From Escherichia coli (lineage in GTDB: Bacteria > Pseudomonadota > Gammaproteobacteria > Enterobacterales > Enterobacteriaceae): a stretch of 64,000 nt of DNA. Positions 28,696 to 32,919 of this stretch are shown piece by piece. Position numbers and translations under genes: made by a program. The notes beneath the pieces were generated by a model. The model was not told the origin of the DNA. It saw only the letters and a list, made by a program, of their open reading frames with translations, and did not search any database. Within the stretch, counting starts at the first letter, position 1, and each line of letters opens with the position of its first letter. The stretch lies in assembly GCF_044324875.1 (NCBI RefSeq), contig NZ_CP172185.1. One strand, 5' to 3'.

Positions 28696-30018
28696 GAATA
28701 AACAGTGTCAATAGATAAGATTGGTTGTAAGGAATCAATGGAGCATGTATGGGACATTTTTAACCGACTAAATTCACAGAAGTTCGTAGGCATCGAAAAC
28801 GAATCATCTGTCCAACCCTTTAAAAACGGCTCTCTTGGACGATTTTCGTCGTTTTTTAAAATGCAACAAGTACGTTGTTCATATGATTTCATTCCATCTC
28901 ATGGGACTGGCGCTACCTTTGTTTGATCTCCCTTGGTATGAGAATTTTTCTGAAATTTTTGGACATTTAGTAGGGTTCTGGTCCATTGAAATTGTTCGCA
29001 GATATTTACGAAACAGAATTACTCATGAGCCAGACCTTGAGATCCATTTAGGCTCAAACAGATAATGTATTGAATTATAAAAATGGCGCAAATACAGTGC
29101 CATTTTTATGGGGTAAATGTTACTTATTTCCTTCTGATACAGGAGAAAAAAGGTCTGATGCAGGTAGCCAATGAGCCTGTAACTCCACTTCGATACTGTA
29201 GAACTGGAGATTTCTACGGAGGAAGACACGTTGTTGCTGGAAGTGAGGAGAAATCTCGGGTGATGTTGAATCATGTTAATACATCAGTAGCACTGGATAT
29301 CGGGAGAACGGTACTACCAGAGGGACAGCATACGCCCGCTACAGTTTGGCGGGCGTAAGGGCATTAAGATTTTTAGAGAGAGCGTTCAGAATTCTGTGTC
29401 ACGTTAAAAATTCTACAGTGTCATCACAGTATTCAGTCGCCCTTCAAAATAAATGGCTAACTGCGACAATGTCAAATTCCAGCTCTGGATCGGCATTGTC
29501 CATTTTTTCTGTACGTTCATCAGCCCCAGATAAAGCAGCTTCTACAGACTATTTTCATTCGGGAAAGCACCTTTGGTTTTGGTCAGTTTCCTGAACTGGC
29601 GATGGACTGATTCAATCGCATTTGTGGTGTAAATGACCTTGCGGATATTTGCCGGATAGCGGAAGTATGCTGACAGGTTTTCCCACTTGCGACGCCACGA
29701 CTGAAGCACCACCGGATATTGCTGGCCCCATTTCGCCTCCAGCTCATCCAGCGCCGTTTCTGCGGCTTCTTTCGACACCGCGCGATATACCGGCTTCAGG
29801 TCGGCCATGAACGCTTTGTGGTGTTTTGCCCTCCAGATTCAGCGCCAGCACCGTGTAAACGACCTTGCTCTGGTAGCGGCCATCCTCCCTGATTTTATAG
29901 TGAATGGCATCCAGCCATACGAAGGGGTAAACCTTCTCCAGCGGGCGCTGTTGCCACTGTTTTAACTCAGGAATGACCTTAGTAAGCGTACAGCGAGGGC
30001 CGTATTGACGGGGATGTG

Positions 30019-31557
30019 TTATTCAGCTGGCAGTGCTATGCGCCACGGAAGCAGTTCGCTGACCCGGTTGACCGGCCAGTCTGCTATGACGCCAAGCACA
30101 TGGCGAAGGTAGCTTTCTGGATCCACGTCATTCAGTTTGCACGTCCCTATCAGGCTGTACAGTAGCGCTCCCCGCTCACCACCATGGCCAGAGCCGAAGA
30201 ACAGGAAGTTTTTACGACCCAGACTTACCGCCCGCAGGGCATTTTCAGCGATGTTGTTGTCGATTTCCACCCAGCCATCGTTCGCATAGTACGTCAGTGC
30301 CGGCCACTGGTTAAGTGCGTACGCGAACGCCTTCGCCAACTCTGAGTGTCGCGACAGGGTCTTCATCTTTTCACGCAACCAGCTTTCCAGGGATTTCAAC
30401 AGCGGTTTCGTTTTTCGCTGACGTTCAGCAAGCCGCTGCTCTGCCGGCATTCCCCTTATATCCGCCTCTATGGCGTACAACTGACCGATCTGCTCCAGGG
30501 CTTCTTCCGTCAGTGCTGACGGGATGCGGACGTGCACATCGTGGATCTTTCGGCGGGCATGAGCCCAGCAGGCAGCTTCCGTTATCCCACCATTGCGATA
30601 CAGCTCGTTGAACCCGGCGTACGCATCCGCTTGCAGCACACCGCTGAAGCAAGCAAGATGAGTCTGCGGATGGATGCCTTTTCTGTCCGGGCTGTAAGCG
30701 AACCACACTGCAGGTGCCAACGCTGACCCGGCATTGCGGTCATCACGAACATACGCCCACAACCGCCCGGTCTTCGTCTTCTTATTACCCGGCATCAGTA
30801 CCTGGACCGGGGTATCATCGGCATGGAGTTTGCCGTCAGTCATGACATAGCCATGAAGCGCCTCTTCCAGCGGAGACAGCAGCCGGCAGCATGCATCCAC
30901 CCAGCCCGACAGCAGTGAACGGCTCAGCTCCACACCTTGCCGGCCGTATATTTCTGACTGGCGATACAGCGGGGTGTGCTCTGCATACTTCGAGGTCAGC
31001 ACGCGGGCCAGCAGCCCCGGTCCGGCGATACCCCGCTCGATGGGCCGCGAAGGTGCAGGTGCCTGCACGATGGCATCGCACTGAGTACAGGCATGTTTTT
31101 CCCGTACCGTCCGGATAACCCGGAAGGCGCTACGCATCAACTCCAGCTGTTCGGCGGTATCCTCGCCCAGATAGCTCAGTGAACCGCCGCAGTTCGGGCA
31201 GCACGGCGCCGCAGGCAACAGTCGCTTTTCGTCACGGGGTAGTGATTCAGGGAACGGCTTACGGATGCGGGTCTGACGCAACGGACGCTGTACTGCCGGG
31301 TCATACACCCTACCAGTCAGCGTATCGCTCTCTTTCTGAAGCCGGTTCAGATCGGCTTCCATTTGTGCGATACGGCGGGAGACTTTTTCGGAACGACTGC
31401 CGAAGTTCATCCGGCGGAGTTTATCCAGCTGCGCCTGCAGATGGTCTATTTCGCGCTCCCGGTTGCTCAGCTTTTCCTGCAGGGCGTGGATCAGCGCTTC
31501 CTGTTCGGCCAGGCGCTGTTTCAGCAGGAAGATGTCGTCAGAAGAGATGTCGTTCAT
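30019..31557 (-). CDS. IS66-family transposase TnpC (orf3)
   Basis: 512 aa with N-terminal leucine zipper, CxxC…CxxC Zn-finger (CPNCGG…CTQCD) and DDE region. Confidence 0.85.
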
Positions 31558-31606
31558 AAGCCCGTATTTTACCGGGCTTATTCTGTGACAACCAGGATAA
31601 AGAGAT

Positions 31607-31954
31607 TTACAGCATGGTCAGGGAGGTCAGCAGCCGCTTAGGCTGTCGCCAGTCGATACCTTCCAGCAGCATCGCCAGCTGCGCCTGTGTAAGGAACACT
31701 TTGCCATCACGGGCTGACGGCCAGGCGAAGCGCCCACGCTCCAGCCGTTTGGTCAGGAGGCACAGTCCGTCACCGGTGGACCACAGCAGTTTAACCTGAC
31801 TGCCGCTGCGGCCCCGGAAAATGAAAACATGGCCGGACATGGGATCGTCTTTCAGCGCCGTCTGTACTTTCGCAGCCAGGCCGTTGAAGCCATTTCTCAT
31901 ATCGGTGATACCGGCAACCAGCCAAATTTTGGTCCCGGAAGGTAAAGGGATCAT
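31607..31954 (-). CDS. IS66-family TnpB (orf2)
   Basis: 115 aa, [31 protein letters not shown]... typical IS66 orf2. Confidence 0.8.
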
Positions 31955-32352
31955 CGCTTCAGTTCCTGTATCAGCAGAGTCAGGAGCTTTTCGCTGACAT
32001 TGCCATTGAAGCGGAGCGTCCCGTGCCGGAACGTTACCTCACAGCTGATACTGAGGGTTTCCGGGTCCTCTGCGAGCGATTCTGGCTGTTCGGCAGCTGC
32101 ATCGAGAGTCACAGGAAGTAGCTGGGGGCTCTCTGAAGAAGGTAATAGCAGCTTTCCCTCGCGCCATTGTTGTCGCCATTTGAACAACAGATTGGCGTTA
32201 ATGCCATTTTCAAGAGCAAGTTTTGAGATGGATATCCCGGGTTCACAGGAGGCAGCAACGAGCTGCTGTTTAAATTCGGGAGGATAATTAGGGCAGCCTT
32301 TTCGCCTGCCGGGAGTCACATTTTTCTGCATATCTGACACTTTGGTTCCCAC
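31951..32352 (-). CDS. IS66-family TnpA (orf1)
   Basis: 133 aa, HTH-containing small protein, first gene of IS66 operon. Confidence 0.8.
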   Translation of the reverse strand: MGTKVSDMQKNVTPGRRKGCPNYPPEFKQQLVAASCEPGISISKLALENGINANLLFKWRQQWREGKLLLPSSESPQLLPVTLDAAAEQPESLAEDPETLSISCEVTFRHGTLRFNGNVSEKLLTLLIQELKR

Positions 32353-32919
32353 TACTTATTTGGTGGACACCACTTTGTCTAATTCGTCAGATTCTGACCA
32401 GACGGTTCAGGCTGTACGCTTACTGACCTTATCGGTCACCGCGCGGATGGTGGCTGTGGAAACGCTGAAGGCATATAAATCTTCAATCTCCCGACTGATA
32501 TCCTGGTAGCTCATTCCCAGCGCAAACAGGCGAATGATCTTGCGTTCGATCTCATCAGACAACGTGGTCTGGTGCTTCTTCACCAGTTGGGGTTAAAAAG
32601 TACCATTACGATCGCGCGGAGTCGCCAGTTCGAAGCTACCGGTCGGGGCTTTAATGGTCTTTTTGCCGGAGCCATTTTTACGATTGGCTTCCACATCCTG
32701 AGCCAGATGGGATTCAAGCTCTGCAGACAGGGCAGCCTAAGTTAACTGCTTGATTAATGACGTTAAGATTCCATCTTTGCCCGTTAATGCCTAGCCGGAC
32801 TGGAGTGCCTTAAGCGCTTTATCGAAATCGAAGGGTTGGGACATGTGTCATTCCTTTTTGATTGTATATTACTGGAATGACACAGAATTTCTAACACTCC
32901 CTTTTTAGATGAAATATAG

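Follow-up and report, generated by a model that had tools for sequence, protein, structure and literature searches.

Target duplication is a common signature of insertion sequences: DDE transposases cut their targets in a staggered fashion, and the filling of the resulting gaps repeats a set number of target bases (typically 8-9 bp in the IS256 family and, by the ISfinder entries, 3 bp for IS629 and 5 bp for IS2). ISEc8, a member of the IS66 family described from enterohaemorrhagic E. coli O157:H7, has an ISfinder entry. Full-length E. coli IS256-family copies with which the present one can be compared are L001:6001-7295 (plasmid pFORC64.3) and L002:1501-2799 (by ireA), both of which are themselves annotated as pseudogenes. 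A nested arrangement like the one described below is found in E. coli 16843 (L014), where the IS66-family element ISCro1 interrupts the transposase gene of an ireA-linked IS256-family copy, with the two elements oriented to each other as they are here. That case is independent and involves another IS66 member, another target and another position (base ~546-554, versus ~818-825 of the full-length element here).

Here, we analysed 64,000 nucleotides of an Escherichia coli genome (contig NZ_CP172185.1; hereafter the window), in which an intact ISEc8 sits within a decayed IS256-family copy. All the components are known elements behaving canonically, the nesting of IS within IS is commonplace, and the structure is already known in kind. 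We assign a probability of roughly 0.93 to a history in which an IS256-family insertion was followed by its decay and, much later, by the insertion of ISEc8, with IS629 and IS2 insertions of similarly young age nearby. The nested locus is composed as follows.

29370..29377, no strand: left TTTTTAGA copy, target duplication of the IS256-family element (octamer repeated at the right end)
29378..29981, minus strand: left part of the IS256-family remnant (terminal inverted repeat and 3' part of the transposase pseudogene)
29824..29828, no strand: TTTTG microhomology kept where 221 bp have been deleted (junction between 29823 and 29824)
29974..29981, no strand: left TGACCTTA copy, 8-bp target duplication of ISEc8, abutting the element end
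29982..32423, minus strand: ISEc8 (IS66 family), 2442 bp, with tnpA, tnpB and tnpC all open and matching IS66-family profiles
30019-31557, minus strand: ISEc8 tnpC, open, DDE transposase
31607-31954, minus strand: ISEc8 tnpB, open
31951-32352, minus strand: ISEc8 tnpA, open
32424..32431, no strand: right TGACCTTA copy, 8-bp target duplication of ISEc8, abutting the element end
32432..32901, minus strand: right-hand portion of the IS256-family remnant, with the 5' portion of the transposase pseudogene and the terminal inverted repeat
32902..32909, no strand: right TTTTTAGA copy, target duplication of the IS256-family element (octamer repeated at the left end)
32923-33705, minus strand: alpha/beta-hydrolase gene, neighbour of the IS256-family remnant

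A preliminary description of this DNA had placed a 2442-bp IS66-family element with an 8-bp duplication inside an IS256-family gene, and this proved exact. The two TGACCTTA copies are perfect and lie directly against both ends of the element (an 8-bp match at fixed positions would arise by chance about once in 65,536), while a passage of PMC6778807, citing Machida 1984, names an 8-bp duplication as an IS66 hallmark. The terminal inverted repeats have their first 13 bases in common (GTAAGCGTACAGC), and the element at 29982-32423 thus has termini beginning with GTAAGCG, the start by which we tested for IS66. Its three genes scored well above the profile cut-offs (tnpC, NF033517, 457 bits, cut-off 180; tnpB, NF033819, 120 bits, cut-off 50; tnpA, NF047595, 97 bits, cut-off 74), with further IS66 profile matches to PF03050, PF05717, zf-IS66 and LZ_Tnp_IS66. 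All three genes are reportedly required by IS66-family elements (a result ascribed to Han et al. 2001).

The matching copies in RefSeq and PLSDB are annotated as ISEc8 ('IS66-like element ISEc8 family transposase'), and the window element differs from eight RefSeq-annotated copies, located on unrelated plasmids, by only 1-2 mismatches in 2442 bp (99.9% identity). It resembles annotated ISEc8 in length, in the tnpA-tnpB-tnpC order, in the GTAAGCG... termini and in the 8-bp duplication, and is unlike other copies in its insertion site only, which lies in an IS256-family pseudogene and is without this insertion in every other genome examined. The 8-bp duplication was perfect in all eight of the other ISEc8 copies inspected (seven distinct sites). 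A target motif for ISEc8 was not recovered, as no consensus existed among the eight target duplications compared; given this want of a common motif, we reason that a neutral landing is the simplest reading. Residence in a pseudogene would be expected to be selectively neutral, and is assumed to be so here.

For the outer element, the extent was obtained by removing ISEc8 together with one TGACCTTA copy and aligning the remainder to the full-length relatives L001 and L002. The span of 29385-32875 given in the preliminary description does cover the pseudogene, but the whole element (interrupted by ISEc8) is wider and runs from 29378 to 32901. Overlooked at that stage was the duplication belonging to the IS256-family copy itself, the intact TTTTTAGA octamer at 29370-29377 and 32902-32909, which is still perfect around an old remnant whose terminal inverted repeats are imperfect (19/24 bases match). 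The window copy shares with L001 and L002 the same ends, the inverted repeats and a Mutator-type transposase (90-95% identity), and L002 carries an 8-bp duplication (TTTAATTT) just as the window copy carries TTTTTAGA. Identity of the remnant amounted to 94% with L001 and 90% with L002, and to 94-95% with the closest full-length relatives. Unlike L001 and L002 (~1295-1299 bp), the window copy lacks 221 bp, has its coding sequence cut by four premature stops and is interrupted by ISEc8. Copies of this IS256-family clade occupy 565 places in 350 complete genomes.

The transposase pseudogene is read on the minus strand from a start codon at 32844 to its natural stop at 29415-29413. The nonsense codons and internal deletion that had been noticed earlier were both recovered, as four premature stops (32793-32791, 32739-32737, 32595-32593 and 29544-29542, the last a TAG) and as a 221-bp gap: in the alignment, L001 and L002 hold 221 extra bases between TTTTG repeats that are missing in the window copy. 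The conceptual translation matched NF033543 (transpos_IS256, 264 bits, cut-off 150) and PF00872 (223 bits), each match falling in two stretches split by the deletion, and the element thus has the single Mutator-type DDE transposase gene of the IS256 family, albeit as a pseudogene. The deletion causes a frameshift, and from the split profile match it probably also removed catalytic residues. With four stops, a frameshifting deletion and the ISEc8 interruption, the copy is neither intact nor potentially active. An exact 30-mer across the deletion junction had no match among species-representative genomes, and a homologous but diverged prophage end (85%; L023, other E. coli) has no insertion at the site that the IS256-family element occupies. 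An identity of this element with IS1414, with an embedded astA gene, was considered; a 12-codon ORF beginning MPS... is all that was seen, and no such identity is claimed.

We made use of ten relatives (L003-L012), public assemblies encoding a protein identical to that of the adjacent hydrolase gene, for ordering the two insertions. Roughly 280 assemblies share this hydrolase protein, and GCA_050232285.1 is one of the relatives. Their gene order comprises phoPQ or an integrase island, followed by roxA, pepT, potA, potB, the hydrolase gene and DinI, and the hydrolase-to-DinI spacing is in every one of them 2450 bp below that of the window. Each has a single TGACCTTA at an uninterrupted site, and BLAST flanks at these ISEc8-free sites overlap by exactly the 8-bp target. 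When positions 29982-32431 were taken out of the window, the resulting 3051 bp had no mismatches to L003, L004, L005, L009 and L010, and one to L007. The IS256-family remnant without ISEc8 (1074 bp) was present in all ten (8 exact, 2 with a one-base difference), and they share the stops, the junction left by the deletion and the TTTTTAGA pair. Since these ISEc8-free relatives hold the same lesions, the decay of the IS256-family copy preceded the arrival of ISEc8, in agreement with the preliminary description, which had called the gene 'already decayed' when it was struck. We regard this as decisive evidence that ISEc8 landed in a copy which had already died and become fixed in the lineage. The insertion of ISEc8 is very recent, because near-identical genomes lack it (e.g., ISEc8-free L009, with 1 mismatch across ~11 kb of flank). 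The search for empty sites in related strains, which had been proposed along with the preliminary description, was thus run, and supports both 'decayed' for the outer element and 'recent' for the inner one.

Within the window alone, the lesions would also fit a later date, with a functional IS256-family copy struck by ISEc8 and collecting its stops and deletion afterwards, as any interrupted gene decays neutrally. However, the finding of all four stops and of the 221-bp junction in ten relatives that were never interrupted (eight of them base-identical) makes such an order hardly tenable. The empty sites could in turn be secondary, if ISEc8 was there first and later disappeared from the relatives, each precise excision leaving one TGACCTTA behind; excision of this kind between short direct repeats is known for insertion sequences. 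Against this stands an empty state shared by ten out of ten relatives, which range from 1 mismatch in ~11 kb (L009) to ~1% divergence nearby (L003, L004), so that many independent, rare and perfectly precise excisions would be demanded in place of one insertion, and the 99.9% identity of ISEc8 to plasmid copies fits a recent arrival. We consider an ancestral ISEc8 most improbable.

None of 5,426 complete E. coli genomes was found to have the filled site as well, the nested junction was not found in PLSDB plasmids, an exact 30-mer across it occurred in no GTDB species-representative genome, and the junction-spanning ORFs of 58 aa and 35 aa (looked up for other filled-site assemblies) returned nothing on record; the filled site is known from one assembly. 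That no independent assembly with this junction came out of the complete E. coli genomes, species representatives and ORF look-ups, and that many E. coli carry several copies of ISEc8, would suit an artefact in which the assembler misplaced a repeated IS. Yet a misplaced repeat would not yield an exact, family-typical 8-bp duplication at both element ends, and the flanks rejoin perfectly onto the relatives, which renders an assembly error scarcely credible.

We thus return to successive insertions, with decay in between, as the preferred history. In this proposed order, an IS256-family IS first entered intergenic DNA, with a tail-fibre-assembly gene remnant on one side and the alpha/beta-hydrolase gene on the other, duplicating TTTTTAGA. 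This copy died in place: four substitutions created nonsense codons, and a deletion of 221 bp between TTTTG microhomologies shifted the frame and removed part of the transposase core. The remnant became fixed in the lineage. Much later, and in the sequenced strain only, an intact ISEc8 entered the dead transposase gene, where an 8-bp staggered cut would have given rise to the two copies of TGACCTTA. The nearby IS629 and IS2 insertions are of similarly young age. These two elements, together with an older IS1-like one, occupy the following positions in the window.

22511..23273, minus strand: degenerate IS1-like element, 763 bp, inverted repeats matching at 20/23 bases, insA/insB-like frames fragmented
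26732-26734 and 28045-28047, no strand: 3-bp duplication TAT on both sides of IS629
26735..28044, plus strand: IS629/IS1203-type IS3-family element, 1310 bp, orfA and orfB open
59801-59805 and 61137-61141, no strand: 5-bp duplication CGTTG on both sides of IS2
59806..61136, plus strand: IS2, 1331 bp, both reading frames open (NF006918, 713 bits, and NF006928, 276 bits, above cut-off)

Both IS629 and IS2 show the orfA/orfB arrangement of the IS3 family and canonical length, with the duplication of 3 bp (IS629) or 5 bp (IS2) that is expected of each. The orfB of IS629 matched NF033516 at 309 bits (cut-off 160), and its short orfA reached 43 bits to this whole-transposase profile (cut-off 160), as expected of a fragment. 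The 3-bp and 5-bp duplications reported earlier were recovered as TAT and CGTTG, and near-identical genomes have an empty site for either element: IS629 is missing from L003-L005, where the two flanks abut, and the empty site of IS2 is found in L024, L025 and L027 (flanks 99.8-99.97% identical), IS2 being also missing at the site in more distant E. coli.

Hence, the recent transposition that the preliminary description had attributed to ISEc8, IS629 and IS2 is borne out, as all three are absent from close relatives and ISEc8 is 1-2 bases from plasmid copies. The old age it gave to the IS1-like and IS256-like elements likewise agrees with their broken frames and with the 94-95% identity of the IS256-family remnant to its closest full-length relatives; no target duplication was found at the ends of the IS1-like element (22511/23273). 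Its reason for calling elements recent, namely that their duplications were intact, does not hold: an intact duplication is no proof of recency, because the old IS256-family remnant keeps a perfect 8-bp one too. An intact target duplication is no clock, and the informative signals of age are open versus broken frames, near-identity to other copies and, above all, presence or absence in near-identical genomes. This last signal also suggests, if indirectly, that ISEc8, IS629 and IS2 may be currently mobile in the lineage.

The significance of the locus is small and largely a matter of bookkeeping. Being present or absent according to strain, the insertions of ISEc8, IS629 and IS2 could serve as markers for fine typing of the lineage, and the locus offers a worked example of how nested insertions are ordered through empty sites in relatives. 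One could further suppose that IS66-family elements are biased toward IS256-family transposase genes, through a local DNA feature or a 'safe-haven' effect. The idea stems from two independent events (ISEc8 here and ISCro1 in E. coli 16843) and from no sequence motif, and we find it very doubtful; if it were true, nested IS-in-IS structures would not reflect purely neutral survival.

The locus lies within a degraded lambdoid prophage adjoining potB, at its right end, an assignment made because of the tail-fibre-assembly remnant, a YadA-type trimeric autotransporter, a small sigma-70-region-4 protein, DinI and the hydrolase. It is absent from the 5,426 complete E. coli genomes and from species-representative genomes. 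The potB-roxA segment is ~96% identical to the top-ranked E. coli match, which at first pointed to another species. This reading was rejected in favour of a host from an E. coli-group lineage, because the ranking favoured genomes sharing the neighbouring integrase island and because, in a query with core sequence only, the phoQ-icd genes reached a best identity of 98.9% among the 5,426 complete E. coli genomes.

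Synteny between the window and two of the related assemblies that carry the IS256 remnant without ISEc8 (L003 and L004) ends at 23821, inside a tail-fibre-assembly gene, exactly where a short transposase-like ORF fragment is found. The features of this prophage remnant are:

window 23641-23830, short ORF fragment, IS66/IS3-type TnpA helix-turn-helix-like, containing …ARIAREHDINDNLLFKW…
window 24596-26197, trimeric autotransporter gene (533 aa), with a YadA anchor and a stalk with internal repeats
window 29083-29358, 3' remnant of a tail-fibre-assembly gene, then a GC-rich hairpin

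The TnpA-like fragment at the break, together with the adjoining IS1-like remnant, suggests that an IS-associated deletion took away the rest of the prophage in the window's strain. The trimeric autotransporter, which sits within the prophage remnant, varies in length between relatives (515 aa in L004 vs 533 aa in the window; 97% identity, 16 gaps). The hairpin that follows the tail-fibre-assembly remnant (ACGCCCGC…GCGGGCGT, at about 29330-29356) lies immediately upstream of the point where the IS256-family element inserted; the diverged prophage homologue L023 has kept it too.

Relatives of the IS256-family element in other E. coli are:

L001:6036-7238 (plasmid pFORC64.3) and L002:1536-2739 (next to ireA), closest full-length IS256-family relatives
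L014:4001-7907 (E. coli 16843, adjoining ireA), nested insertion of ISCro1 (IS66 family)

Both full-length copies are themselves annotated as pseudogenes (internal stop; frameshift), and this IS256-family lineage may be in broad decay across E. coli. ISCro1 interrupts the homologous transposase gene at another position than ISEc8, and represents an independent event.

An 11-kb island (window 39638-50500), flanked by roxA and phoQ, resembles a phage satellite (PICI-like) in its gene content, with genes for a tyrosine integrase, an AAA_25 (RepA-like) helicase, an SSB, a major capsid protein of lambda-E type and a small terminase of Nu1 type. It was found in L003, L009 and L011, and is missing from L004 and L005, where roxA directly adjoins phoQ.

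Although the locus is common to hundreds of draft assemblies, none of the 5,426 complete E. coli genomes in RefSeq exceeds 98.9% identity to the core genes (window 50827-58891 and 34287-39490); the window's lineage appears to be missing a complete RefSeq representative.
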